Source: Candidatus Parcubacteria bacterium
Lineage (GTDB): Bacteria > Patescibacteriota > Minisyncoccia > Phycocordibacterales > JAKAEA01
Assembly (NCBI GenBank): GCA_963806325.1
Contig: CAWDXL010000021.1
Location: 18,624-82,623, forward strand
Direction of reading: 5' to 3'
DNA: 64,000 nucleotides
Shown here: positions 6,335 to 50,300 of the stretch, piece after piece
How the letters are laid out: every line of letters starts with the position of its first letter
Position numbering within the stretch: the first letter of the stretch is position 1
Notes under the pieces: model-generated
Databases searched by the model: none
Told to the model about the DNA's origin: nothing
Seen by the model: only the letters and a program-made list of their open reading frames with translations
Position numbers and translations under genes: made by a program

Positions 6335-6937
6335 GTGAACTATTCTTCAAAAAATTCCGGTTTTACACTGATTGAGCTCATGGTATCGCTCGGCCTGTTT
6401 ACGGTTGTAAGTCTTATGGGTATTTCTGCAGTCCTTATCGTTATTGCTTCAAACAAAACGACCCTCTCATCAAATTCTGTTATTTCCAATCTTGATCTTG
6501 CCGTTGAGGATATGTCCCGAAGCATTCGCGTGGGCAGCAATTATCATTGCGGTGATTACAATTATGCTTCACCTGATTTATCGGTGGTATCTAACCCCCA
6601 TGATTGTCCGCCGCAGACAATCACTGCCGGCCAAAATGATAATTTTACCTTTGAGCCGAGCGCAGAAACAAACGATACCAATCGTGACACCTATTATCTG
6701 AGCGGTACAAAAATAGTGAAGGCGATCAACGGTGTTGATGAAGGAGTGATCACGCCGCCTGAAGTGACTATCGATTCATTAACGTTCTTTGTGAGCGGGT
6801 CGGCACAGCAAAGCGATCCTCCTCCAAATAGGACGCAGCCCAAGGTCATCATTATTATTGTCGGGTATGTTACAAACGGCGGCACAAAAACTTCGTTTAA
6901 TATTCAAACTACTGTTTCTCAGCGGGTCGTACTATAG
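6335..6937 (+). CDS. Minor pilin / pseudopilin-like protein
   Basis: The N-terminus MNYSSKNSGFTLIELMVSLGLFTVV has the G/FTLIE motif. 200 aa. Confidence 0.75.
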   Translation: MNYSSKNSGFTLIELMVSLGLFTVVSLMGISAVLIVIASNKTTLSSNSVISNLDLAVEDMSRSIRVGSNYHCGDYNYASPDLSVVSNPHDCPPQTITAGQNDNFTFEPSAETNDTNRDTYYLSGTKIVKAINGVDEGVITPPEVTIDSLTFFVSGSAQQSDPPPNRTQPKVIIIIVGYVTNGGTKTSFNIQTTVSQRVVL

Positions 6938-19882: not shown

Positions 19883-20177
19883 ATGATTTCTACGAATGAT
19901 GTAAAAAAATTGGCGGCGTTGGCCCGTATAAAGCTGACGGCTGAGGAAGAAGAAAAGTTGGCCAAAGATATGGAAAGTATTCTAGGCTATGTTAAGCAAA
20001 TTAAAGAAGTTGCGGCTTCTTTAACGACGCCGGAAAAAACTGGAGACAGAAGAAAGAACGCGGAATGTGCTTCGGGAAGATTCCAATCCTCATGAGTCAG
20101 GTATCCATACTGAGGCAATTTTAGCTGAGGCGCCTCAGCGGGAAGGTGCGTATTTAAAGGTAAAAAAAATACTGTAA
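19883..20177 (+). CDS. gatC: Asp/Glu-tRNA amidotransferase subunit C, with one frame break at A6 (20034-20039)
   Basis: MISTNDVKKLAALARIKLTAEEEEKLAKDMESILGYVKQIKEV, then, after removing one A, ...PEKLETEERTRNVLREDSNPHESG...AYLKVKKIL. Its stop overlaps the gatA start (TAATG). Confidence 0.8.
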
Positions 20178-21616
20178 TGATAAACCTCAAAGAATTAACG
20201 ATACAAAAAGCTCGCATCGCTTTAGACAAGAAAGATTTTTCTGCTGTCGAACTTGCGCTGGCATATAAAGCAGAAATAGAAAAGAAAAATCCGGAGCTTC
20301 ATGTCTACCTCGAAGTTTTTCCCGATATTGAAGAGCAGGCGAAAAAAGCTGATGAGATGATACGGGCAGGGAAGTCACAGGCACTTACCGGCATTCCTTT
20401 TTCAATAAAGGATAATATTTTAATCAAAGGCCGAAAAGCCTCATCAGCATCAAAAATGCTTGAAAATTATACCGCCACCTACGATGCAACTGTTATCACA
20501 AAACTCAAAGCTCAAGGCGCAGTATTTTTAGGCAGAACAAATATGGATGAGTTTGCCATGGGAAGTTCAACCGAAAATTCAGCGTACGGAGCGACCAAAA
20601 ATCCGTGGGATACGTCGCGTGTGCCCGGCGGATCTTCGGGTGGTGCTGCAGCAGCACTCGCGGCCAATCTTTGTTTGGCGTCACTTGGTTCTGATACCGG
20701 CGGTTCTATCCGCCAGCCGGCAAGCTTTTGCGGACTGGTAGGCTTGAAGCCAACATACGGTGCTGTCTCGCGTCACGGCGTCATGGCCATGGCCTCATCT
20801 CTCGATCAAATCGGACCACTCGCAAAAAATGTTGAGGATGCTCAAATTATTTTTGATGCTATACGAGGCAAAGACCGATATGATTCAACCTCTATAGATA
20901 TTCCGGCTACTCCAAGTACTCCAGTTCCAACAAAGAAATTCAGAATCGGCGTGCCGTTTGATTTTGTCGGTCAGGGCGTGGATGAAGACGTTATGAAAAA
21001 TTTCAACGACTCGCTTGAAAAACTCAAGAAAGCGGGCTGCGAAATTGTTGATGTAAAATTGCCATACTTAAAATATTCTCTCGCGGTTTATTATATTTTG
21101 CAGCCGGCAGAAGTGTCTTCAAATCTTGCGCGGTTTGATGGAGTGAAATATGGCCTTCATAGAGACGGCAAAGATTTATTAGAAGATTATCTGCTCACGC
21201 GCCAAGACGGTTTTGGTCCTGAGAGCCGCCGCCGTATCATGCTCGGTACGTATGTACTCTCTTCAGGATATTATGATGCGTACTACTATAAGGCACACGC
21301 TGTACGCTCGCTTATCATTAAAGATTTCGAAAAAACATTTGAACATGTTGATGTTATTTTAACGCCTACATCTCCGGTGCCGGCATTTAAAGCGGGGGAA
21401 AAATCAAACGACCCGTTGGCAATGTACCTAGCCGATATTTTTACGGTCTCGGCAAACATCGTGACACTGCCCGCAATTTCCGTTCCATCTGGTTTTGCGG
21501 AAAGAGATGGAAAACAGCTGCCGCTCGGCATTCAATTTACCGCTCCTTACGGATGCGAGCATGTTTTGTTTGCTATCGGCAAGAAAATGGAAGCTGCAGT
21601 AATACCAAAAAAATAA
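20177..21616 (+). CDS. gatA: Glutamyl-tRNA(Gln) amidotransferase subunit A (amidase signature family)
   Basis: 479 aa with the amidase signature GGSSGGAAAALAA...GSDTGGSIRQPASFCG. It follows gatC directly. Confidence 0.92.
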   Translation: MINLKELTIQKARIALDKKDFSAVELALAYKAEIEKKNPELHVYLEVFPDIEEQAKKADEMIRAGKSQALTGIPFSIKDNILIKGRKASSASKMLENYTATYDATVITKLKAQGAVFLGRTNMDEFAMGSSTENSAYGATKNPWDTSRVPGGSSGGAAAALAANLCLASLGSDTGGSIRQPASFCGLVGLKPTYGAVSRHGVMAMASSLDQIGPLAKNVEDAQIIFDAIRGKDRYDSTSIDIPATPSTPVPTKKFRIGVPFDFVGQGVDEDVMKNFNDSLEKLKKAGCEIVDVKLPYLKYSLAVYYILQPAEVSSNLARFDGVKYGLHRDGKDLLEDYLLTRQDGFGPESRRRIMLGTYVLSSGYYDAYYYKAHAVRSLIIKDFEKTFEHVDVILTPTSPVPAFKAGEKSNDPLAMYLADIFTVSANIVTLPAISVPSGFAERDGKQLPLGIQFTAPYGCEHVLFAIGKKMEAAVIPKK

Positions 21617-21685
21617 TATGGCTGAAGCAGGAGCCCCCAAGGGCGATGCAAAAGTAGAAAAAAAAGCCAGACATTTACTGAGTAC

Positions 21686-22306
21686 ATGATCGAGCTCTTA
21701 GGCTTTATTATTCTCATCGTCCTCATATCAAATGCAATCGGAAGGGTTTCGCAAAAATACGGCTCGCTGACGTGGCAAACAATTGCCGCTGCAATCGGCA
21801 ACTGGATTATTTCTTCGCCAATCGGCCCCTTTGTTCAGTATTTTGCTGTTGCGTTTGTGACGGTCATTAACATTGTATGCCTTGTGCTCGTTTTCGGTAT
21901 CGTCTACAGTCTTATTATGCTTGGACGTGCCGACAGGCTGCTTGAAGAGACTATCATCCCAGAGGCTAAAGATGAGGAAGTTATAGAAAACAAAAATCCG
22001 CGCTGGCAACGTGTCGTGGAACATCTCGGATCAAAAAATCCCGGTGACTGGCGTCTTGCGGTACTTGAAGCTGATATTGTTCTTGATGAATTGCTTGATA
22101 CGCTTGGATACACCGGCGATACAATCGGTGACAAACTTAAGAAAGTGGCCAGAGGAGATTTTATTCCTCTCGATCAAGCTTGGGAAGCCCACCGGATCCG
22201 TAATGCAATTGCTCATGAAGGCCACGAATTCATGCTTTCAGAGCGCGAAGCTCGCCGCATTATCGGGCTCTACGAACAGGTATTTCGGTCATTTAACTTT
22301 ATTTAG
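21686..22306 (+). CDS. Hypothetical membrane protein (3 N-terminal TM helices, conserved soluble C-terminal domain)
   Basis: 206 aa with hydrophobic N-terminal helices and the C-terminal motif WEAHRIRNAIAHEG. No family name recognised. Confidence 0.6.
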   Translation: MIELLGFIILIVLISNAIGRVSQKYGSLTWQTIAAAIGNWIISSPIGPFVQYFAVAFVTVINIVCLVLVFGIVYSLIMLGRADRLLEETIIPEAKDEEVIENKNPRWQRVVEHLGSKNPGDWRLAVLEADIVLDELLDTLGYTGDTIGDKLKKVARGDFIPLDQAWEAHRIRNAIAHEGHEFMLSEREARRIIGLYEQVFRSFNFI

Positions 22307-22360: not shown

Positions 22361-22431
22361 AGGGGAGTAGTGGAACGGCACCACGGGAGGCTCATAACCT
22401 CTAAAAGCAGGTTCGACTCCTGCCTCCCCAA
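22361..22431 (+). tRNA. tRNA with CAU anticodon, possibly the initiator tRNA-fMet
   Basis: Hand-folded cloverleaf: acceptor aggggag/ctcccca (A1xA72 mismatch), D arm gtgg-aacggca-ccac, anticodon arm ggagg-ctcataa-cctct, T arm gcagg-ttcgact-cctgc. The 1:72 mismatch and two G-C pairs next to the anticodon loop are initiator-like. Confidence 0.75.
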
Positions 22432-22499
22432 CACGTCGCCGGTTTTCCTGTAATATGAGCATTGAATGAATACGCATTGCGTGGTATGTTTATTTTGCT

Positions 22500-22572
22500 G
22501 TCAGCGTAGCTCAGTTGGTAGAGCACAGGACTCATAAGCCTGGGGTCGTGGGTTCGATCCCCACCGCTGACA
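22500..22572 (+). tRNA. tRNA with CAU anticodon (elongator Met or lysidine-dependent Ile2)
   Basis: Acceptor gtcagcg/cgctgac, D arm gctc-agttggta-gagc, anticodon loop ctcataa, T arm gtggg-ttcgatc-cccac. There is one A-G mismatch at 31:39. Confidence 0.8.
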
Positions 22573-22595
22573 CATTTTTTAACCTTGGCATTTGT

Positions 22596-22623
22596 TTGAC
22601 AAAGCTTTTTATGAGTGTACGAT
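22596..22623 (+). promoter_or_regulatory. Sigma70-like promoter candidate (TTGACA, 16 nt, TACGAT) for the downstream noncoding transcript
   Basis: ttgaca at 22596-22601 and tacgat at 22618-22623. Confidence 0.4.
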
Positions 22624-22629
22624 TAACAA

Positions 22630-23024
22630 ACGGAACGACCGAATAGCTATTGGATGGCTGTCGGGCGACGTTCTATTTTAGATACGTCCTGTTATTTGGG
22701 AGGTTCGACATGCCGTCGAACAATATTGTGGGTAGTGGCATACGGGTGGTTTTTGGCGAAGTTGTTGGAGAGCCGAGTACTCCTGGTGCTCAGCGACTTC
22801 AACTTTCTCGGTGTGTCTGAGAGAGACGCCGAGGATGCCAAGCCGGCTGGAAATAGGATCAGAGAGAGGGTGGTTCTCCTTTCTCAGGAAGTCTGCTTTA
22901 CAGACGTCCCCAGAGGTGCACGTTTCCGACGGCGGTTCTGAAAATGGGTTTGGGCGCAGTTAATTATTTTGCTTGATCGGGAGGTCACATCTATGAGGGG
23001 GCAATCAACGCCCCCTTTTTTTTT
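22630..23024 (+). ncRNA. Candidate structured ncRNA of ~400 nt, identity unresolved
   Basis: This is a 525-bp gene-free gap between tRNA genes with a promoter-like element upstream. A strong terminator sits at 22997-23024 (gggggc/aatcaac/gccccc plus T9). It contains local hairpins such as gttcgac-atgcc-gtcgaac and gtctg-cttta-cagac. The only long ORF (22654-22941) has an Arg/Cys/Trp-rich, non-protein-like composition. Confidence 0.45.
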
Positions 23025-23098
23025 ATTGCTTCAAAAGCAAAAATCTGTTACATTCTAGGGTATCTTCTAAAGTCTTCTGTGGCTTTCCAAGAAAAATT

Positions 23099-23172
23099 GC
23101 GGTCGTAGCTCAACTGGTTAGAGCACTCGCCTGTCACGTGAGAGGTTGTGGGTTCAAGTCCCATCGGCCGCG
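23099..23172 (+). tRNA. tRNA-Asp (GUC)
   Basis: Acceptor gcggtcg/cggccgc (one G-U pair), D arm gctc-aactggtta-gagc, anticodon arm ctcgc-ctgtcac-gtgag, T arm gtggg-ttcaagt-cccat. Confidence 0.9.
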
Positions 23173-23203
23173 CAAAAGTTTCGATTTCTATTATGGTAGT
23201 ATT

Positions 23204-32214: not shown

Positions 32215-32287
32215 GCCACCTTAGCTCAGTTGGTAGAGCACCACTTTCGTAAAGTGGGGGTCCGCAGTTCGATCCTGCGAGGTGGCT
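32215..32287 (+). tRNA. tRNA-Thr (CGU)
   Basis: Acceptor gccacct/aggtggc, D arm gctc-agttggta-gagc, anticodon arm ccact-ttcgtaa-agtgg, T arm cgcag-ttcgatc-ctgcg. Confidence 0.9.
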
Positions 32288-32290
32288 CAC

Positions 32291-38637: not shown

Positions 38638-38708
38638 TGCGGGATCGTCTAATGGTAGGACATTTGCCTCTGGAGCAAAGTATCTTGGTTCGAGTCCAAG
38701 TCCCGCAG
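38638..38708 (+). tRNA. tRNA-Gln (CUG)
   Basis: Acceptor tgcggga/tcccgca (U1-A72, as in bacterial tRNA-Gln), D arm gtct-aatggta-ggac, anticodon arm tttgc-ctctgga-gcaaa, T arm cttgg-ttcgagt-ccaag. Confidence 0.88.
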
Positions 38709-40289
38709 CAAGCTTGGATTTTGTAAGCACAAAGCTTCAAAATCCTTTTGTTTTTCAACAGTATCTAGAGGTTCTAACCGTTCTTTTATCTGCTTAACAT
38801 ATTTTGCACACTCGGGCATTGGCAAAAGTGTTTCTGCCAAGTTAACTATAAGTTTTTTGTCTTTTATCAATAGGTTCGAACCTAGAGTCGAAAGTATCCG
38901 TCTTCTTGTCTCCATTGAGCCGTTTTTGAACTTATCTCGGGCATGAGTGATAAATAACAACATATCGTCAGCCGCTTCAAGCCATTTCTCAACTCTTTGG
39001 TCGGTATTGCCTAATGCCTTCTTGAAATTATCTTTTTCCTCTTGAGCTCTTGTCTTTCTTTCAAGAAATTCTTGCTCTGTAAGCTCACCATTGGCTCTCA
39101 TGTCGATTAAGTTATCAATTTTGCGTACAGCGGCGTTATAGCCCTTCTGCTGGCTTTCCAACACTGAAGTTCTGCTTGTTGATTCTTTCTCGTGTTCTGC
39201 CTTAAACCACTTCATCGCAAAAGTATGAAACTCTGGCGGGATTTCAAGTGAATCAATCGTTAGGTCAATTTGCTTTTCAAGCTCATCTTGCTCTATAGAC
39301 CCCTGAGTACACTGTGGGTTTTTTCTTTTGGTACAGTGATAATAAATGTAGATATGAACATTACCATTTTTCTGTTTCTTCATTTTTGTTTCGGCAGTAA
39401 TCATACAACCGCATTCAGCACATTTCATCATACCGATAAAATCAAAAATATGTTTTTTCGGTCTAGGTCTACCTTCTCTTCCAAGTAGAAACTGAATTTT
39501 GTCGAACTCTTCCTCCGTCATCAAGGGTTCGTGAGTGCCTTTATGCCATTTGCCACTACCAACTGGATATTCAAAAATTCCATATCCAAACGGACGAGTA
39601 AGAATATTGTATATTGTGCTTCTACTCATCGGTTTACCTTGAGGTGTTTTAAATCCCCATTCTTTATTTACAATGTTTAATATTTTTGGGGGAGTGTATG
39701 TTCCTGTAAGCATGAGGTCTATCATTCTACGAAGGAGTGGAAATCTTTCTGTGTCTGTTTTAATACCCTTAATACCTTTTTCATCGGTAAAATTTAAATG
39801 ACCTAAAGGTGCAGGACCAGGGAATACTCCTAGACCAGCTTTTTGTCCTAAACCTCTTTTTACATCTCGTCCTTTTTTAGCAGAGTCATACTGAGATTGA
39901 GAAAGAGCCATCTGTAACATCCAAATACCTTCAGGTGTATTGTCGAAATGATAGGCAACAAATTTTAAATCCTGAATTTGATTTGTGCGAACCATGTAAG
40001 TTAATGATGCTGCGTCAATTTCATTTCGAGAAAGTCGGTCAGGATGCCAGACAATTAATCCTCGTCTATCTCCTGAACCAATTTTTTCAAGCATACCTGA
40101 AAAGAGTGGACGGTTGTAGGGTATGAAAGCACTTTTACTTTCCTCTATAAATTCAATATCAAGGTCGGGAAATGTTTCAAGAATTTTCGTCTTTTGAGCT
40201 GGAATTGACAATGCTTGTCGTTCTTTATCTTCACTAGATTTGCGAAGATATGCATAGTATTTAATTTTATTTTTGTGTTCAGATTTCAT
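38649..40289 (-). CDS. Large serine recombinase (phage-type integrase)
   Basis: 546 aa. N-terminal resolvase domain with YAYLRKSSEDKE (catalytic Ser) and LIVWHPDRLSRN. It also has a recombinase domain, a Zn ribbon (CAECGC...YYHCTKRKNPQC) and a long coiled-coil C-terminus. The last ~20 codons read antisense through tRNA-Gln. Confidence 0.9.
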   Translation of the reverse strand: MKSEHKNKIKYYAYLRKSSEDKERQALSIPAQKTKILETFPDLDIEFIEESKSAFIPYNRPLFSGMLEKIGSGDRRGLIVWHPDRLSRNEIDAASLTYMVRTNQIQDLKFVAYHFDNTPEGIWMLQMALSQSQYDSAKKGRDVKRGLGQKAGLGVFPGPAPLGHLNFTDEKGIKGIKTDTERFPLLRRMIDLMLTGTYTPPKILNIVNKEWGFKTPQGKPMSRSTIYNILTRPFGYGIFEYPVGSGKWHKGTHEPLMTEEEFDKIQFLLGREGRPRPKKHIFDFIGMMKCAECGCMITAETKMKKQKNGNVHIYIYYHCTKRKNPQCTQGSIEQDELEKQIDLTIDSLEIPPEFHTFAMKWFKAEHEKESTSRTSVLESQQKGYNAAVRKIDNLIDMRANGELTEQEFLERKTRAQEEKDNFKKALGNTDQRVEKWLEAADDMLLFITHARDKFKNGSMETRRRILSTLGSNLLIKDKKLIVNLAETLLPMPECAKYVKQIKERLEPLDTVEKQKDFEALCLQNPSLLRDLDSNQDTLLQRQMSYH

Positions 40290-40935: not shown

Positions 40936-42147
40936 TTAACCTAAGTCATATCTTTTAAATTCTTGTAATTTTTCCTCAACAACTGCAATTCCACGAGTAT
41001 AAGGAATATCTTTCAGGAGAATTGCAGAGTCTCTAATTTTTTCATCAAGACGCAGTCCACAACTTTTATCACTCCATAATGCATTCAGCTTATTTTTAAC
41101 TCTTCGTACACCAAATTCGTTTACAAGAAAATACAAGCCAAAATTGATTAGAGTTTTATTAAGAGTATGAGCATTTCTTTTGCCAGTTCTTTCTCTCTGA
41201 ATAAGAGTATTTAGGACATCCTCAGAAGAAATATCTATTTTGAATGCTAATTGATTAGCAGGTTTATCGGTAATGTCAGTCCAAGTTTTTAGGATTGCCT
41301 TTTTCCACAATACTTCACTAAAGATTGACTCGAATGTAATTACTTCAGGTTTATTAGGCAGAAGCTTTGAGACAAAACTGTATACACTTTTTTGACTATT
41401 GAATCTAATCTCAAGCCTCAATACTTGTTCGGTCTTACGCAATTTATCTTGAAGCAGACCGTACTCACTCTTCGTTTTATCTTTATCAACAGAGATATTT
41501 CTTGTTTTCTCAATGTCCTTCATTTTGTCATAGAAGATGATGTTATGAGAGCTTGTATAGAAATAAAGGCTCTCGCCATCATTTCTGTACTCTCGTGTGT
41601 TTACTTCCATTCGTCTTCCTAAATCCGCCTTTTTAAGTTCAGCCAATACATCTCTTACTGTCATTGGATAAGGTAGCAAAATGTTTTTGCCAAAATGAAC
41701 CTTTGTAGCAATTGAGTTTTTGATGGCTTTTTCGCTTGCGTTTATCCCCATTGTTGCGAGCTTCCGTTGCAGTAAGACAATAAGAGACTTAAAACAATTC
41801 TCTGAGTCTATAATTTCCTGGAGGTTGTTTCCGTAGAGTATTTTCGGAATAGAAAACTCTATATGAAGATAATAATTTAGTTCACCATCCTCAAATCGTC
41901 GGTATGCAGTAAGGCGGGGTTTATAGATGTCTTCCTGCCTGTCTTCAAAAGTTGAATTTTGAACATACTTCTTGAATGATTTTTGATAATTGAATGTACT
42001 AGGAATTTCTTTTCCTTGCTTGATAACTAACTCGGGATAAAACAACTCAGGTTTTACGACCTGAAACTCTGGGTATTTTATCTTTAGACTAACGGTATCA
42101 AGCATAAGCGTTAGCCTATTTGCGTTGCTTTTTATGTTCATATCCAT
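40936..42147 (-). CDS. Putative replication initiation protein (resembles the phage/plasmid gene II/X Rep family)
   Basis: 403 aa. The spaced pattern LDTVSLKI..., LHIEFSIPKILYGNNL, VHFGKN, ESLYFYTSSHNIIFYDK, VLRLEIRFN matches my recollection of that family (SLPK..G.N / YDK / LR.E). This is not verified by search. Confidence 0.4.
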   Translation of the reverse strand: MDMNIKSNANRLTLMLDTVSLKIKYPEFQVVKPELFYPELVIKQGKEIPSTFNYQKSFKKYVQNSTFEDRQEDIYKPRLTAYRRFEDGELNYYLHIEFSIPKILYGNNLQEIIDSENCFKSLIVLLQRKLATMGINASEKAIKNSIATKVHFGKNILLPYPMTVRDVLAELKKADLGRRMEVNTREYRNDGESLYFYTSSHNIIFYDKMKDIEKTRNISVDKDKTKSEYGLLQDKLRKTEQVLRLEIRFNSQKSVYSFVSKLLPNKPEVITFESIFSEVLWKKAILKTWTDITDKPANQLAFKIDISSEDVLNTLIQRERTGKRNAHTLNKTLINFGLYFLVNEFGVRRVKNKLNALWSDKSCGLRLDEKIRDSAILLKDIPYTRGIAVVEEKLQEFKRYDLG

Positions 42148-42613: not shown

Positions 42614-43534
42614 TCAAAGTGATTTTTGTGAATGCTTCTTTGCTCGTTTTCTATTACGTTCACGTACACAATCTTTATTTTCTAAAGTATCAGGACAATA
42701 TTTTTTAGAGTGACCAAAAGGCAGTGCCTTACCACAATTATTACAAAAGGCTGAAACTCTGTATAAAGCGAGCATCTCTTCATGAAACAATGCTGCTAAG
42801 CTTCTGGCTACAACAACCGATATTTTCTTAGGTCGATTTTTTAGACCTGATTTTTTAATTTGTGTTTCATCAATCTCGTATTCTTCTGCACCAGTTGGGA
42901 TGAAACCATCGTTTTGATGTTGGTCTAAGGCTGTCCAGAGATTTGAGTTTGGGATTGTTAAGTTAAAAACATCTGAGTTAGATGAGGTTCTTAATTTCTC
43001 GTAAATATTAATATTACCTTTCATTATTTGTTCGTATTGCCTGTATATTTCCTCACCGAATTTCTTGTGATTATATAAGCCTCCCCAGAAATACAATCCT
43101 AATTTTTCGCCCATTACTTTGTCGTCCTCACGATTTATATACATCTGCCAAAACAATGGAGTATTGTAAGTACCTTGATAACTATATAAACCCAACTCAA
43201 ATCCTACGCCATTTCTTATAGTAAATTCACCTTCTTTTATAGATTCCATCAATTTCTTTTCAAGGTTTTCAGCCCAATCTTTTGCAGGCTTTAATTCTGA
43301 AATCTGTGAAAGCTGATTTTTCTTAAAGTTGTAAATTACAGATTGATATGGAAGAAACAGATTATCTAACGTAAGAGGCTCATTTTGTAATAGGGTTACA
43401 AATTTATCCCAGAGAATATTATAGGTGACCTCATCAAAATAATTCTCTGTTTCAGAATCCTTGCGGTGGTCGTTTACTATAATGGCATAGCGAATAGGAA
43501 ATCTGTCGGGTAAATTCTTCATATTATGCTTCAC
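42614..43534 (-). CDS. Hypothetical protein with a C-terminal Cys-cluster and basic tail (possible DNA binding)
   Basis: 306 aa. C-terminus CNNCGKALPFGHSKKYCPDTLENKDCVRERNRKRAKKH. Confidence 0.5.
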   Translation of the reverse strand: MKHNMKNLPDRFPIRYAIIVNDHRKDSETENYFDEVTYNILWDKFVTLLQNEPLTLDNLFLPYQSVIYNFKKNQLSQISELKPAKDWAENLEKKLMESIKEGEFTIRNGVGFELGLYSYQGTYNTPLFWQMYINREDDKVMGEKLGLYFWGGLYNHKKFGEEIYRQYEQIMKGNINIYEKLRTSSNSDVFNLTIPNSNLWTALDQHQNDGFIPTGAEEYEIDETQIKKSGLKNRPKKISVVVARSLAALFHEEMLALYRVSAFCNNCGKALPFGHSKKYCPDTLENKDCVRERNRKRAKKHSQKSL

Positions 43535-43636
43535 ATTACTTCACTTTTATATTTTATTCAAATTACAAAGCGGACTTCTCTTTACCCTCAAAATATGTTT
43601 AAATTGAACCACAACTAAATACGGTATAAGCCTAAA

Positions 43637-43774
43637 CCAGTGAGAAATCACTGGCATGGCATAAAATCCGCACGACACAAGAAAACCCGTTATCAGGGCG
43701 TGTCGTGCGTTGCTGGGAGAAATCCCAGCATGACCTTCGGGTCACCTGGTAGCGGGCTTTGTTGTATCCGCTAC
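43637..43774 (+). ncRNA. Cluster of five consecutive stable hairpins (candidate structured RNA or single-strand replication origin)
   Basis: The five hairpins are ccagtga-GAAA-tcactgg, cgcacgacac...gtgtcgtgcg (10 bp), gctggga-GAAA-tcccagc, tgacc-TTCG-ggtca and gtagcgg...ccgctac. The GNRA and UUCG tetraloops appear only when read on the plus strand. Confidence 0.5.
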
Positions 43775-43799
43775 TAAATTATTAGCTAGTCATAAAAAC

Positions 43800-44369
43800 A
43801 TGGACACGACACATGTCGGTAAGAAGAGATTTTATAAACGATGGTGGTTCTGGGTCTTAGTGATTATAGTACTTTTTATAATTATAGGCTCAAGTGGTAG
43901 TTCAACTACTCCAACTAAAGTTGCGAGCACTGATGCTACTACTACCTCTCAGCCCGCTCAACAGCAACAACAGGTCTATAAAGTTGGAGACAGTATAAAA
44001 CTCGGTGATTCAATTTTAACGGTTAATAAAATCTCAACATCATTTGGGGGACAATATACAAAGCCTTCTGAAGGTAATGAGTGGATAGATTTGAATATTA
44101 CTATTCAAAATACAAGTTCATCCCAGCAGTATGTAACAACAATGGGTCAAATGTTTGTTCGAGATGGTCAAGGTAATAGCTATCAAGTTGCTGTTACGGA
44201 CAAGCAACTAGAAAATCCGAGTGCTGGTTTAGATGGAGCAATTATTGCTAACAGTAAACGGACGGGCTGGGTCGGCTTTGAGGTTCCTAAGGGTGCTACA
44301 GGGCTTCAATTCCAATACAATGGCAGTTTGTGGGGTGGTGGCACAGTTCTTGTGAATCTGACTCAATAA
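43800..44369 (+). CDS. Membrane-anchored DUF4352-like protein
   Basis: N-terminal TM helix (WWFWVLVIIVLFIIIG), a Thr/Ser/Gln linker, then a beta-rich domain (GDS..L.......V..................G..W(I)...(I)T(I)QN.....................G..Y......GW(V)GFEVP) as I recall for DUF4352. Confidence 0.5.
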   Translation: MDTTHVGKKRFYKRWWFWVLVIIVLFIIIGSSGSSTTPTKVASTDATTTSQPAQQQQQVYKVGDSIKLGDSILTVNKISTSFGGQYTKPSEGNEWIDLNITIQNTSSSQQYVTTMGQMFVRDGQGNSYQVAVTDKQLENPSAGLDGAIIANSKRTGWVGFEVPKGATGLQFQYNGSLWGGGTVLVNLTQ

Positions 44370-48864: not shown

Positions 48865-50300
48865 TTATAAATTATATCTTTGAATACAAACTTCAGCTCT
48901 TACTCTTGGTAAATTGAGCCTACTCCATTCAGTCATTCCGCCTTTAAGGCTGTATGCTTCTATGCCCGCCTCACGAGCTTTAAATGTGGCAATCTTGCTA
49001 CTATTCCCACGGCGACATACAAAGATAACCTTCTTGTTTTTATATTTTGAATCTTTAAGTTGCTTGTCATTTAAACCATCTTCAATATGTTCTGAAGCAG
49101 GAGCATGAAAGTCTTCATATTCTTCAGGTCTACGAGTGTCTATGAGAATTATATCTTCATTCGCTTCGACAGTATTCTTCTCCTTAATATTTTTCCAAAG
49201 TTTAGAAGGCTCATCTCTAAATAAAAGTTTATATGTTTCTTCCGCAGTAATTTCAGGAATCTCAGATTTAATTGTTTTAACTGAGTTGATTGATTTATTT
49301 TCTAATAACTCCTCATTAAAAATCTGTGGAAATTCAGATTTATCTAGGTACTCAAAGTACTCATCAATGTAAGGTAGTGGGCTGTCAGGACAAATAAAGA
49401 CGGCAATTTTCTCTTGGTTAGTATTTAAATTTTCCTCAGATAAATATTTAAGTAGACCTGCTAATGCGAAACCTGAACTGGGTCCAGCCATAATGCCAGC
49501 TCTGCATAATTCCAAGCTTTTCTTAAATGATTCTACTGTTCCAATTTCCTCAACCGTATCTGTATATTTCTTCCAATCAAAAGCTATCTCTTGTAAAAGG
49601 TTTTGTGTTCGTACACCTGGTACAGGATTATTAGGCTTTCTGGTAACTCCAACAATTTTAATATCTTTATTTTTATCTTTTAGATATTTAGCAGTACCGA
49701 CTATCGTTCCTGTTGTTCCAAGACCTACACATAAAATATCAATCTTGCCCTGAGTTTGTTCCCAGATTTGTGGGGCAGTCCATTTTTCATGAGCTTGTGG
49801 GTTTGCTTCATTATCATATTGCCCAGGATTAAACCACTTATTTTCTTTAGCCAAACTTTTGCTTTATAGATGCCGCTAGTCGGGTCATGTGGGTCAGGAC
49901 AAATCGGCTCATGATTTACTATTACTTCTGTGCCAAGGATTCTTAATAATTTTAATTTTCCTTCGCTTACTTCATGAGAAACAATTGCCTTAGTTTGAGG
50001 AATACCAAACGCTCTACCAATAACAGCGAGGGAAAACACAGTATTGCCAGAAGAGTTTTCAATAATAGTATTTATTCCTGACAAATCCTTTTCTAAAAGC
50101 ATGTTATATGCCGGTAAAGACTTAACATTTCCAAGAGGTAAAAAGTTCATGAGCTTAGCAAAAATCCGAATACCTTTCTCTCTAAATGGATTCAGACTAT
50201 CAGGTAATTCAACCAATGGTAAAGGTGGATTATTATCGGGATTTAGAAAATCTCGAATTGCATTCTTGCCTGCAAAAACATTTAACTGGTTAGAGTTCAT
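48865..50300 (-). CDS. PLP-dependent cysteine-synthase-fold enzyme fused to a C-terminal rhodanese domain; frame break near 49860
   Basis: The N-terminal piece has the PLP-lysine context (LPLGNVKSLPAYNML) and SSGNT. The second piece has GLGTTGTIVG and a PSSG loop. The C-terminal rhodanese domain has the active-site loop CRRGNSS. Confidence 0.7.

Follow-up and report, generated by a model that had tools for sequence, protein, structure and literature searches.

The hairpins discussed here lie in a window of 64,000 nt (the whole stretch of DNA that was analysed), in the space between two divergently oriented genes. The genes and other features that form their setting are the following.

38638 to 38709, + strand: tRNA-Gln, overlapped by the 3' end of the serine recombinase gene.
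38649 to 40289, - strand: large serine recombinase with Resolvase, Recombinase and Zn_ribbon_recom domains.
40936 to 42147: gene with a weak match to Rep_trans-like replication proteins.
42614 to 43534, - strand: divergent neighbour of 306 aa without a family match, the first gene of an operon that runs leftward and has the recombinase as its last gene.
43800 to 44369, + strand: cargo gene for a DUF4352 membrane-anchored protein of 189 aa (Pfam PF11611, E = 9e-24; phrog_806), which also has weak matches to superinfection-exclusion families.

A preliminary description of this DNA had reported five hairpins upstream of the cargo gene, and all five are present at the place given, on the + strand, although the loop of the fifth comprises 12 nt (gctttgttgtat) and not 11, and a 3-bp outer stem enclosing the first hairpin had been overlooked. 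It had also proposed a scan with Rfam, in which hairpins 1 to 4 together with the short outer stem gave a full-length match, at 43629-43744 on the + strand, to the covariance model of LOOT RNA (RF03000). It scores 78.0 bits where the gathering threshold is 46.4, with E = 5e-15 and over model positions 1-121 of 121. Judged by this match, the five-hairpin region is a single LOOT copy, with a 5' leader and a 3' tail that extend beyond the Rfam model. The suggestion that the hairpins form a structured RNA is thus supported, and the locus is a rediscovery of a known family and not a new class. The elements of the RNA and its flanks are as follows.

43596 to 43604, + strand: predicted extended -10 promoter element TGtTTAAAT, deduced from an alignment of 93 relatives that is anchored at the leader.
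43611 to 43621, + strand: 5' leader ACAACTAAATA, consensus ACAAYUNAAUA in 93 relatives, outside the Rfam model.
43629 to 43744, + strand: LOOT RNA (RF03000), helices P1-P6, from the full-length covariance-model match and covariation.
43630 to 43632 with 43658 to 43660, + strand: P1, 3 bp, enclosing P2.
43631 to 43637 with 43654 to 43659, + strand: receptor-like internal loop CCUAAAC / GCAUGG between P1 and P2, from the sequence and the Rfam consensus.
43637 to 43654, + strand: P2, ccagtga-GAAA-tcactgg, with the GAAA loop at 43644-43647.
43661 to 43668, + strand: A-rich linker AUAAAAUC from P1 to P3 (Rfam consensus AAAAa; relatives).
43669 to 43678 with 43700 to 43709, + strand: P3, cgcacgacac/gtgtcgtgcg, all 10 pairs changed on both sides among relatives.
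43686 to 43688 with 43696 to 43698, + strand: P4, ccc/ggg, inside P3.
43712 to 43729, + strand: P5, gctggga-GAAA-tcccagc, with the loop at 43719-43722; the helix as entered spans 43711-43730, and all 8 pairs covary.
43731 to 43744, + strand: P6, tgacc-TTCG-ggtca, with a UUCG loop; the helix covaries.
43745 to 43767, + strand: G-rich/U-rich 3' tail CCUGGUAGCGGGCUUUGUUGUAU, consensus CUGGYGGNGGGCUUUUUGU, present in nearly all relatives, outside the Rfam model.
43749 to 43755 with 43768 to 43774, + strand: hairpin 5, gtagcgg...ccgctac, with its 5' arm in the conserved tail, a 12-nt U-rich loop and the 3' arm CCGCUAC.
43805 to 43813, + strand: CACGACACA, which repeats the P3 5' strand (43671-43679) in the same orientation, in cargo codons 2-5 and complementary to the P3 3' strand.

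A 45-aa open reading frame at 43640-43777 was dismissed as an artefact of the RNA gene. As for the family itself, the source of the LOOT motif is the supplementary data of Weinberg et al. 2017 (PMC5737381), and the motif is not discussed in the main text of that paper. Rfam lists LOOT with the type 'sRNA', as a bacterial RNA without known function, and a literature search yielded no paper on its function, though its entry there goes back to the 2017 survey.

The minimum-energy fold of 43625-43780 consists of exactly the helices listed above, at -71.1 kcal/mol, while shuffles of the same region average -40.6 kcal/mol (z = -8.3; 0 of 200 as stable). The opposite strand of the hairpin region is nearly as stable, with z = -7.3, and, because it folds almost as well, folding energy alone does not pick the strand. 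What does pick it is the excess of G-U/U-G over A-C/C-A combinations in the paired positions of the relatives, 276 versus 28, which argues that the + strand is the one that folds. The strand of the Rfam match and the conserved promoter upstream agree, and by all three lines the folded strand is the + strand.

Approximately 95 relatives of LOOT were retrieved, mostly from genome bins of Patescibacteria (CPR), using a search pattern that fixed GCCTAAACC, GGCATGG and AAAA and so confined the sample to members with these motifs. In 77 of these relatives, 96.9% of the cells in the alignment are paired and 949 cells are changed on both sides, with both-side changes at 31 of the 36 pairs; in the 95-sequence alignment, 95.0% of the cells are paired and 1234 are changed on both sides. 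Slid controls, on the other hand, give only 25-45% of cells paired. For P3, which will be of special importance below, pairing reaches 97-98%, with both-side changes at 10 of 10 pairs. The helices are, in short, kept with covariation across 77-95 homologous loci, and together with the Rfam E-value of 5e-15 this places the hairpin set far beyond chance. The two hairpins of 7 bp with a GAAA loop, which had been described as covariation-like, are not variants of one design; they are separate helices of the family, namely P2 and P5. Each locus surveyed carries one LOOT copy, and arrays are absent.

The loops of these helices behave differently among the relatives. The P5 loop, which lies outside the search pattern, is GAAA in 93 of 94 relatives, whereas the loop of P2 varies (GCAA, GAAA, GUAA and others) and that of P6 changes among UNCG and GNRA types. 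The internal loop CCUAAAC/GCAUGG and the A-rich linker are conserved as well, in part by construction since their bases belong to the search pattern; the internal-loop bases are also given in upper case in the Rfam consensus. The canonical 11-nt receptor of a GAAA tetraloop is CCUAAG/UAUGG (PMC2615604; bioRxiv 10.1101/2024.03.11.584472), and the contact between the two is found in the P4-P6 domain of the group I intron, in RNase P and in other RNAs (PMC2615604). The window sequence CCUAAA(C)/(G)CAUGG is identical to this receptor at 9 of 11 positions, with an A opposite C in place of the G.U pair. The cognate GAAA would then be that of P5, and most likely this loop docks into the receptor-like loop between P1 and P2, making the whole a compact domain.

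When 93 relatives are aligned on the leader, a promoter profile emerges upstream, composed of a -35 TTG, a 17-nt spacing, TG and a -10 element, and ending 7 nt before the conserved ACAA. Of the 93 sequences, 63 have T at -35, 56 have G at -14, 53 have T at -12, 57 have A at -11 and 55 have T at -7, and the -10 hexamer of the window agrees with TATAAT at 4 of 6 positions. The predicted start of transcription lies at or near 43611, the first position of the leader, whose successive conserved bases are A in 84, C in 75, A in 87, A in 82, U in 79, A in 80, A in 75, U in 79 and A in 74 of the 93. Adding leader and tail to the Rfam model raises the score by 3-32 bits in the loci compared, for instance from 70.7 to 102.6 bits at L063 and from 91.5 to 117.2 bits at L053. 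A tail conserved in sequence is unusual for an expression platform.

Within the tail, hairpin 5 is 82-86% paired in the model-fitted alignment, and its 5' arm pairs better with the 3' flank of its own locus than with those of other loci (-12.1 versus -9.8 kcal/mol, p = 1.7e-6). Its 3' arm, which may be seen as an optional complement of the tail, is missing in about one third of the loci. Several other pairings of the tail were considered and set aside. Pairing of the ACAA in the leader with the UUGU of the tail loop amounts to at most 4-5 bp and, judged by reading the alignments, lacks covariation; competition of the P6 3' strand or of the P5 3' strand with the tail fits single sequences only, the window not being among them; and pairing between the A-rich linker and the U tract showed by eye no consistent pattern across relatives. 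Similarly, a short upstream open reading frame in the tail (GUG GGC UUU UUG) would be continuous with the cargo frame in about 13 of 95 loci by a rough count, which is about chance.

The tail also bears on the question of where the transcript ends. It closes with the conserved GGGCUUUUUGU, the first 9 nt of the U tract containing 7 U in the median, and one can argue that LOOT is a free-standing, trans-acting sRNA of the mobile element, a discrete RNA of approximately 155 nt that ends at GGGCUUUUU. The cargo would in that case simply have landed downstream of a strong promoter, with leaky read-through accounting for its expression, and the true target would lie elsewhere, for example in the recombinase operon or in a host function. 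The strong predicted promoter that LOOT has of its own, its recurrent position divergent from the serine-recombinase operon, its persistence whatever the cargo and its Rfam type all favour such an RNA. The stem that would have to precede the U tract is, however, too weak for an intrinsic terminator: its median stability is -1.7 kcal/mol, none reaches -8 kcal/mol or below, and shuffles do as well. In hairpin 5 the U tract lies in the loop and not 3' of the stem, and a terminator scan found no site on the + strand. A mini-hairpin of the type CCCA/UGGG or GCU/AGC followed by the U tract was rejected as a canonical terminator; its stem seems to covary by eye, and its stability equals that of shuffles. 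Apart from leader and tail, moreover, the RNA lacks a conserved single-stranded seed. Leaky termination at the U tract, with release of a free sRNA, is still conceivable, and we consider the free-standing sRNA a possible explanation, with a probability of around one in four.

Turning to the wider setting, LOOT resides in an integrative element of at most approximately 10 kb, adjoining the tRNA-Gln of a Patescibacteria-like genome. The housekeeping genes of this genome show 58-74% translated identity to those of a Saccharibacteria bin (L041), and the only record of the cargo protein is on a Logan contig of 1.4 kb. The ends of such elements seem to lie on the 3' side of the recombinase, by tRNA genes. 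Direct repeats marking the ends were sought between 38400 and 64000, and only short chance pairs were found; serine recombinases make no long repeats. A blastn search of 43540-43800 against a phage collection returned no match. Most LOOT loci are phage-like in their content, with a serine recombinase, a terminase or a ParB-methylase, and the same large serine recombinase family occurs near LOOT in 33 of the 67 loci with at least 2 kb visible upstream. In related elements the recombinase, LOOT and distal genes are kept and the cargo differs.

A nearby gene II/X-like Rep candidate had led the preliminary description to its second reading, in which the hairpins serve a rolling-circle replicon as its single-strand origin (sso). 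They would then fold as single-stranded DNA, prime the synthesis of the lagging strand and be served by the Rep_trans-like protein. The weak Rep_trans/replication-protein match at 40936-42147 and the strand specificity of the hairpins are in keeping with this, and the TAGCG of the window tail (43750-43754) resembles the CS-6 motif (TAGCGT) of ssoA origins. Yet a relative of the window Rep is found at only one other LOOT locus, L086, and outside the window TAGCG is seen in L068 alone, the remaining relatives having GGUGGCGGG, GUGGUGGG or GGCGGGGAG. What is more, LOOT is flanked by a conserved, sigma-70-type promoter, as expected of double-stranded DNA, and by a co-oriented gene, and the pairing of GAAA with an 11-nt receptor, a tertiary contact that needs 2'-OH groups, is a motif of RNA. 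An origin of this kind is accordingly the most improbable of the explanations treated here.

With genes and start codons of the relatives called by a simple script for open reading frames, the gene downstream of LOOT is co-oriented with it in 88 of 92 loci, and the cargo ATG lies a median of 53.5 nt past the end of the Rfam model, within 80 nt in 58 of 62 cases. The cargo families are highly diverse, including methylases, nucleases and surface and exclusion-like proteins, and they share no pathway. This almost constant presence of a co-oriented gene close downstream speaks against an RNA that acts purely in trans, and so does the following observation, which concerns the P3 3' strand. At 18 of 92 loci, compared with 0.8 expected, this strand has at least 8 contiguous Watson-Crick pairs with the 110 nt downstream in its own locus, and in the majority of these 18, 0-6 nt lie between the end of the partner and the cargo ATG. 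Duplexes of -14 kcal/mol or below occur at 17 loci, compared with 1.1 expected by permutation and 4 in the control with the own upstream region. Such locus-specific complementarity to the start of the own cargo gene would be hard to explain in trans. In about 20% of the loci, then, comparison shows the P3 3' strand to be complementary to the start region, and this three-way covariation suggests control of translation, with the P3 3' strand as a candidate sequestor of the start region.

Folding predictions are consistent with such a role. When the P3 5' strand is blocked, the 3' strand is predicted to pair with the start site in 14 of the 18 loci, the energy penalty having a median of 5.4 kcal/mol, and the predicted ground state is the sequestering fold at L056 and the native fold at L057. 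In the remaining approximately 80% of the loci the complementarity is absent or at background, and the median energy of the duplex between P3 and the start region is no different from that of the controls. In the window copy, 8 bp could form between 43700-43707 and 43805-43812, in cargo codons 2-4. The duplex of -14.2 kcal/mol is borderline there, since 4 of 91 downstream regions taken from other loci do equally well, and the folding program did not choose this pairing when the P3 5' strand was blocked. Across the family as a whole, the effect is strong.

Taken together, we regard LOOT as a cis-acting 5' leader that serves as a translational switch for the cargo gene that follows, and give this reading a probability of roughly 55%. 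Rightward transcription of LOOT would begin near 43611, within the divergent control region, driven by an extended -10 promoter of its own, and the RNA would fold into P1-P6, with the GAAA loop of P5 docked into the loop between P1 and P2. Because there is neither a canonical terminator nor room for a second promoter between the two, LOOT would form the 5' untranslated leader of the cargo gene, and transcription is predicted to read through from one into the other. In the native fold, the P3 5' strand would hold the P3 3' strand; upon a presumed trigger, P3 would open and its 3' strand, once freed, would pair with the start-codon region and close the start. In some relatives, the U-rich tail may replace the P3 3' strand as sequestor, and the window copy may use the same mechanism. 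The preliminary description had left the choice between an sRNA and a leader of the DUF4352 gene open, and of the two it is the leader that fits better, given the co-orientation, the short distance to the ATG, the lack of a canonical terminator and the complementarity of P3, whereas the free-standing sRNA fits less well.

It is also conceivable that LOOT protects the cargo transcript without any switching, namely as a passive 5' stabiliser or insulator against 5' end-dependent decay, or as a standardiser of expression. Its place at the extreme 5' end of the predicted transcript, its many stable tetraloops with a likely tertiary clamp, its association with unrelated genes and the absence of the switch signature in about 80% of the loci would all be accounted for in this way. 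For such a purpose, however, a simple 5' hairpin would suffice, and the family keeps six helices that covary, a GAAA that does not vary and a tail conserved in sequence; the 18 loci in which P3 shows three-way covariation with the start region would call for an additional explanation. We hold passive protection to be rather unlikely, more so than a free sRNA.

The same region can be looked at as DNA. The tail with hairpin 5 would then be a double-stranded inverted-repeat site of the serine recombinase, with the 3' edge of LOOT serving as an integron-like capture slot. The recombinase is indeed oriented away from a strong predicted promoter, downstream of which a variable, co-oriented gene would be read, the homology of L017 and L045 stops right at the U tract, the 5' arm of hairpin 5 is conserved with a 3' arm that is variable or absent, and the P3 5' strand is directly repeated at the cargo boundary. 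Instead of being a sequestor target, or in addition to it, this locus-specific repeat could even be the footprint of an RNA-guided or RNA-templated insertion of cargo beside the recombinase, which we think very doubtful, and which, if true, would amount to an integron-like platform made of a serine recombinase and a structured RNA in mobile elements of Patescibacteria. Against a capture site stand the single LOOT per locus without arrays, a search that found no repeat of the tail motif on the far side of the cargo (except for a 17/20 match in L100) and the homology of L067 and L065, which continues past the tail to the start codon. In addition, the element ends are apparently at the 3' side of the recombinase, near tRNA genes, and the repeat is more simply read as RNA pairing. 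We consider a capture site highly improbable.

What these results add is a setting for an orphan RNA. The window locus and its approximately 95 relatives, abundant in Patescibacteria (CPR) bins, place LOOT in serine-recombinase integrative elements, almost always ahead of a swappable accessory gene. If our reading of LOOT as a cis-acting leader is true, mobile elements of little-studied bacteria set a portable regulatory leader before their cargo, and the Rfam label 'sRNA' needs revision.

Finally, it is instructive to compare LOOT with known systems. It shares with translational riboswitches and regulatory mRNA leaders the predicted position in the 5' UTR before a co-oriented gene and, at a subset of loci, a P3 strand that is predicted to pair either within the domain or with the start region, in the manner of a sequestor and anti-sequestor, the two folds being close in predicted energy in several loci. 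It differs from them in that the downstream genes have no common pathway, in that the signature is present in about 20% of the loci and in that its tail keeps its sequence, which expression platforms usually do not; we know of no ligand or protein partner of LOOT. The nut sites of phage lambda and the put sites of HK022 are promoter-proximal, cis-acting RNAs of temperate phages, and LOOT is likewise a structured RNA directly behind a predicted early promoter, and the divergent control region that holds it belongs to an integrating element. It has no similarity to them in sequence or structure, however, and since its transcription unit seems to contain a single gene and to run towards convergent genes, processive antitermination would be without obvious use. 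With the ssoA-type origins, which are single-strand origins of rolling-circle plasmids, the window LOOT has in common the strand-specific hairpins near a Rep-like gene, but the family as a whole has no association with Rep and is flanked by promoter and gene. Integron attI/attC recombination requires the tyrosine recombinase IntI and arrays of cassettes with folded sites, while here the recombinase is a large serine enzyme, the loci are single-copy and the tail is not repeated after the cargo. The likeness to the GAAA/11-nt receptor consists in the invariant GAAA loop and the CCUAAA.../...CAUGG internal loop, with an A opposite C where the canonical receptor has a G.U wobble, docking being a prediction. 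The closest comparison is that with the LOOT family itself, of which the window copy has the six helices, the CCUAAAC/GCAUGG loop, the A-rich linker and the GAAA loop, its core being without any difference from the Rfam model. To that model the present analysis adds a predicted promoter with the leader and a 3' tail, both conserved and outside it, and to the Rfam entry it adds the context of serine-recombinase elements of Patescibacteria and a constant place before a variable gene, a context that suggests something other than the type 'sRNA' given there.

All five hairpins that the preliminary description had placed on the plus strand were confirmed in the sequence, and its reading of them as a structured RNA was upheld by the Infernal/Rfam scan it had proposed. 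Namely, across the whole window the single match other than tRNAs is LOOT (RF03000; the name is presumably short for 'lots of tetraloops'), at 43629-43744 on the plus strand, with 78 bits against a gathering score of 46.4 and model positions 1-121 of 121 covered. Since the match is full-length, the first four hairpins, together with a 3-bp outer stem (P1), make up a complete LOOT RNA; a permissive Rfam scan of the LOOT region returned no further family. The copy agrees with LOOT in every membership feature open to testing here, and is a new member of this known family. Its parts, as read from the sequence, are listed below, the loop of the fifth hairpin counting 12 nt rather than the 11 nt first claimed.

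43630-32 with 43658-60, plus strand: P1, 3-bp outer stem, overlooked in the preliminary description
43637-43654, plus strand: P2 hairpin, GAAA loop
43669-43678 with 43700-43709, plus strand: P3, enclosing the small stem P4
43712-43729, plus strand: P5 hairpin, GAAA loop
43731-43744, plus strand: P6 hairpin, UUCG loop
43749-43755 with 43768-43774, plus strand: fifth hairpin

The minimum free energy fold of 43625-43780 (-71.1 kcal/mol) consists of exactly P1-P6 and the fifth hairpin, with z = -8.3 against dinucleotide shuffles. The opposite strand folds nearly as well (z = -7.3), so that folding stability alone cannot pick the strand. This choice comes from the relatives, which we retrieved with a pattern of the most conserved LOOT bases. 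The pattern occurs at 6 places in viral contigs, 3 of them confirmed as LOOT by Rfam, and at 120 or more places in a species-representative genome collection; a covariance model with the window copy as its only input sequence, run on the retrieved loci, found at least 97 full-length copies and 1 incomplete one. In an alignment of 77 sequences, 96.9% of cells are standard pairs, and 31 of 36 pairs show changes on both sides (949 cells). Fitting to the structure biases this alignment towards pairing, yet the margin over a control with the 3' partners slid by 1-3 columns (25-45% paired) is very large. Covariation thus excludes a chance or coding origin of the hairpins. What is more, G-U/U-G cells number 276 in the LOOT helices against 28 for A-C/C-A, which makes the plus strand the folded one, as had been claimed at the outset.

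Taxonomically, about 70 of the 95 LOOT-positive genome loci among the matches listed carry Patescibacteria labels in their record titles (Saccharibacteria, Parcubacteria/Paceibacterota, Microgenomates and others), the remainder among these matches being mostly unclassified or doubtfully labelled bins; all such labels are those of the deposited bins. Other labels (Gammaproteobacteria, Bathyarchaeota, Bacilli, Sediminibacterium or Sulfotelmatobacter) stand on the bins of some LOOT-positive contigs (L011, L012, L032, L072, L086, L090, L114 and L117; also L013, L104, L119 and L122), some of which are short or from small assemblies; mislabelled or mis-binned Patescibacteria or mobile-element DNA seems more likely here than a wide host range. 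The Saccharibacteria locus L041 also resembles the window outside LOOT: two housekeeping genes, an amidase and the next gene (20177-22306 against L041 1-1643), share 58-74% translated identity, and the window's 78-aa gene has a relative upstream of the LOOT of L041 (42369-42479 against 6518-6633). Nothing else points as well to where the window comes from.

The fold itself carries a further hint at its nature. The loops of P2 and P6 vary among GNRA and UNCG types, while that of P5 is GAAA in 93 of 94 relatives. Between P1 and P2 lies an invariant internal loop in which CCUAAAC faces GCAUGG. Across the relatives, the positions fixed in the retrieval pattern (GCCTAAACC, GGCATGG and AAAA) are invariant by construction. 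The canonical 11-nt GAAA receptor is given as CCUAAG/UAUGG (PMC2615604; bioRxiv 10.1101/2024.03.11.584472). The LOOT loop shares 9 of its 11 positions; through the other two, the receptor's G.U wobble becomes an A opposite a C. It is likely, judging from this resemblance, that the P5 tetraloop docks in the P1/P2 loop and so holds the RNA in a compact shape. A GAAA/11-nt-receptor contact uses 2'-hydroxyl groups, and the putative docking would therefore argue for RNA and not single-stranded DNA.

The conserved LOOT unit is longer than the Rfam model. A leader, ACAAYUNAAUA, lies about 8-20 nt upstream of the model (43611-43621 in the window), and a sequence-conserved tail, CUGGYGGNGGGCUUUUUGU, follows P6 (43745-43767). 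A second model that includes both outscores the first in the loci compared (from 91.5 to 117.2 bits in L053, 70.7 to 102.6 in L063 and 84.8 to 107.3 in L054). Counted from the leader's first A, the upstream profile has T at -35, then T/G and G, a 17-nt spacer, G at -14 (56 of 93 relatives), and a -10 hexamer with T at -12 (53/93), A at -11 (57/93) and T at -7 (55/93). By its sequence, this is a predicted extended -10 sigma-70 promoter, with its start near the conserved ACAA; the window's -10 element, TGtTTAAAT (43596-43604), matches less well than most. One Saccharibacteria subfamily (L067, L076, L065 and L059) has an operator-like palindrome, AATAATAG(N11)CTATTATT, about 40-10 nt before the leader, in the gap that separates LOOT from the divergent recombinase gene. 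It extends over the LOOT -10 box and is a candidate repressor site.

In the fifth hairpin, the G-rich part of the tail pairs with a more distal complement, and the U tract forms part of the loop. Many loci do have a genuine 3' arm: a locus's own flank pairs better than those of other loci (-12.1 versus -9.8 kcal/mol, p = 1.7e-6). It is absent in roughly a third, however, and no more than 82-86% of the hairpin's cells are paired in the fitted alignment. Since no U tract stands behind its stem, the hairpin is ruled out as a canonical terminator. The small stem before the U tract is no stabler than shuffles (median -1.7 kcal/mol, none at or below -8), and a consensus terminator scan gave no plus-strand site. 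In L100, a 17/20 match to the locus's own tail motif recurs about 2.6 kb downstream on the same strand, the only second copy among the loci tested. Beyond the U tract, some 30-odd nt remain before the ATG of the cargo, as we call the co-oriented gene just 3' of LOOT, which leaves no room for a second promoter. With neither a canonical terminator nor promoter space, LOOT is very probably, as far as these signals can tell, the 5' UTR of the cargo mRNA. Of the other readings, the strongest, though we consider it rather unlikely, is a free-standing sRNA with its 3' end at the U tract, past which transcription would run into the cargo only by accident.

In the window, LOOT sits in the divergent intergenic region of an integrated element with the following genes.

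Minus strand, leftward operon, in order: 306-aa gene, 78-aa gene, weak Rep_trans/replication-protein match, 148-aa gene, 546-aa large serine recombinase
38649-40289, minus strand: the large serine recombinase, its 3' end overlapping tRNA-Gln (38638-38709, plus strand)
43800-44369, plus strand, right of LOOT: DUF4352 membrane protein (phrog_806; weak similarity to superinfection-exclusion families)
After the DUF4352 gene, opposite strand: DUF4238 gene

Host genes flank this element (CTP synthase/NYN at left, a PALP enzyme near 48.9 kb at right), which limits it to about 10 kb with LOOT inside. The PALP gene, with a rhodanese domain, consists of two overlapping minus-strand ORFs (48865-49854 and 49725-50300), a probable frameshift (pseudogene or sequencing error) at the likely right edge. 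Ordinary host features are a cluster of two tRNA-Met and one tRNA-Asp (22361-23173) and a separate tRNA-Thr (32215-32288). That LOOT works as DNA, as a recombination site or gene-capture slot of the serine recombinase, is very improbable. Of the 67 loci showing at least 2 kb upstream, 33 have the recombinase family within 4 kb on that side; it is the immediate upstream neighbour in 19 of 91, and is usually divergent, starting 100-170 nt from LOOT. Its 3' end abuts or overlaps an opposite-strand tRNA gene also in L021, L075, L123 (tRNA-Glu), L111 (tRNA-Ser) and L083 (tRNA-Val), which puts the element end on that side and LOOT in the interior, and suggests that tRNA genes serve these elements as insertion sites, as is more familiar from tyrosine integrases. 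Beyond the next gene, 16 loci have convergent ParB-methylase and small HTH genes; a large terminase occurs in 8. The rolling-circle single-strand origin offered as the second initial reading is the least credible of all: Rep-like neighbours occur in 2 loci only among the matches listed, the relatives do not conserve the window's CS-6-like TAGCG, and LOOT lies between a promoter and a co-oriented gene.

The next gene, called like all relatives' genes and start codons with our own ORF script on 8-kb tiles that cut off some flanks, lies on the LOOT strand in 88 of 92 loci, its ATG at a median distance of 53.5 nt from the end of the Rfam model. What it encodes varies extremely: DNA methylases, DUF2726, DUF4352, trypsin-like peptidases, restriction-nuclease-like proteins and many proteins without a family. 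By a crude count, 42 of 62 have a hydrophobic segment at the N terminus. L067, L065 and L059 keep the recombinase, LOOT and distal genes with a different gene in between, homology of L067 and L065 extending to the start codon. LOOT thus heads a variable cargo slot.

In a subset of loci, the start region of the cargo could pair with LOOT. In 18 of 92 loci, the 3' strand of P3 finds at least 8 contiguous Watson-Crick matches in the 110 nt downstream at its own locus, against 0.8 expected when downstream regions are exchanged between loci. For most of the 18, only 0-6 nt separate the partner from the ATG that follows it, the typical arrangement being 'AAAACC + copy of the P3 5' strand + ATG'. Duplexes of -14 kcal/mol or lower form in 17 loci, with 1.1 expected by permutation and 4 from the own upstream region; at -12 kcal/mol or lower, the P3 5' strand, a further control, gives 2 loci versus 21 for the 3' strand. 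Since the P3 sequence differs between loci, its two strands and the start region covary three ways, as is usual where two helices exclude each other. When the 5' strand is blocked in folding, the 3' strand turns to the start site in 14 of the 18, for which the median penalty is 5.4 kcal/mol; unconstrained, the predicted ground state is the sequestering fold in L056 and the native one in L057. By eye, the tail U tract CUUUUUGCGU of L014, L065, L067, L075 and L076 is complementary to ACGCAAAAG a few nt upstream of the ATG, which could be a second way for the 3' region to close the start region. In the window, CACGACACA (43805-43813, codons 2-5 of the DUF4352 gene) repeats the P3 5' strand (43671-43679) and is hence complementary to the 3' strand; this 8-bp match is borderline, equalled by 4 of 91 foreign regions, and the pairing is not the predicted alternative fold there. 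Overlapping it, the near-palindrome GACACGACACATGTC (43803-43817, around codons 2-6) scanned as a terminator-like hairpin on the minus strand.

We therefore favour, at a probability of roughly 0.55, LOOT as a cis-acting leader of the cargo gene whose translation is governed by the P3 3' strand or the tail. A strong promoter would drive LOOT, which would fold compactly under the tetraloop-receptor clamp while transcription runs through into the cargo; the P3 3' strand (in some lineages, the tail) would then be held inside LOOT or be free to close the start region, and so set translation. A protein, a metabolite, Mg2+ or folding kinetics are candidate triggers. In about 80% of loci the P3/start-region signal is not above background, and a passive stabilising leader is a further reading, less probable than the free-standing sRNA.

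LOOT comes from the 2017 survey of Weinberg et al. (PMC5737381), whose main text does not discuss it; a remark on its unusual covariation pattern (PMC7657543) is the only other mention found, and a literature search for its function returned no paper. Judged against the main text of that survey, the extended boundaries, the receptor-like loop, the setting in Patescibacteria mobile elements, the variable cargo slot and the P3/start-region complementarity may each be new. As for known systems, terminator, single-strand origin and integron site were each rejected, as defining features of each were looked for and not found. We do not file LOOT as a riboswitch because no effector is known; in a subset of the loci, it would nevertheless work like a translational leader or riboswitch.
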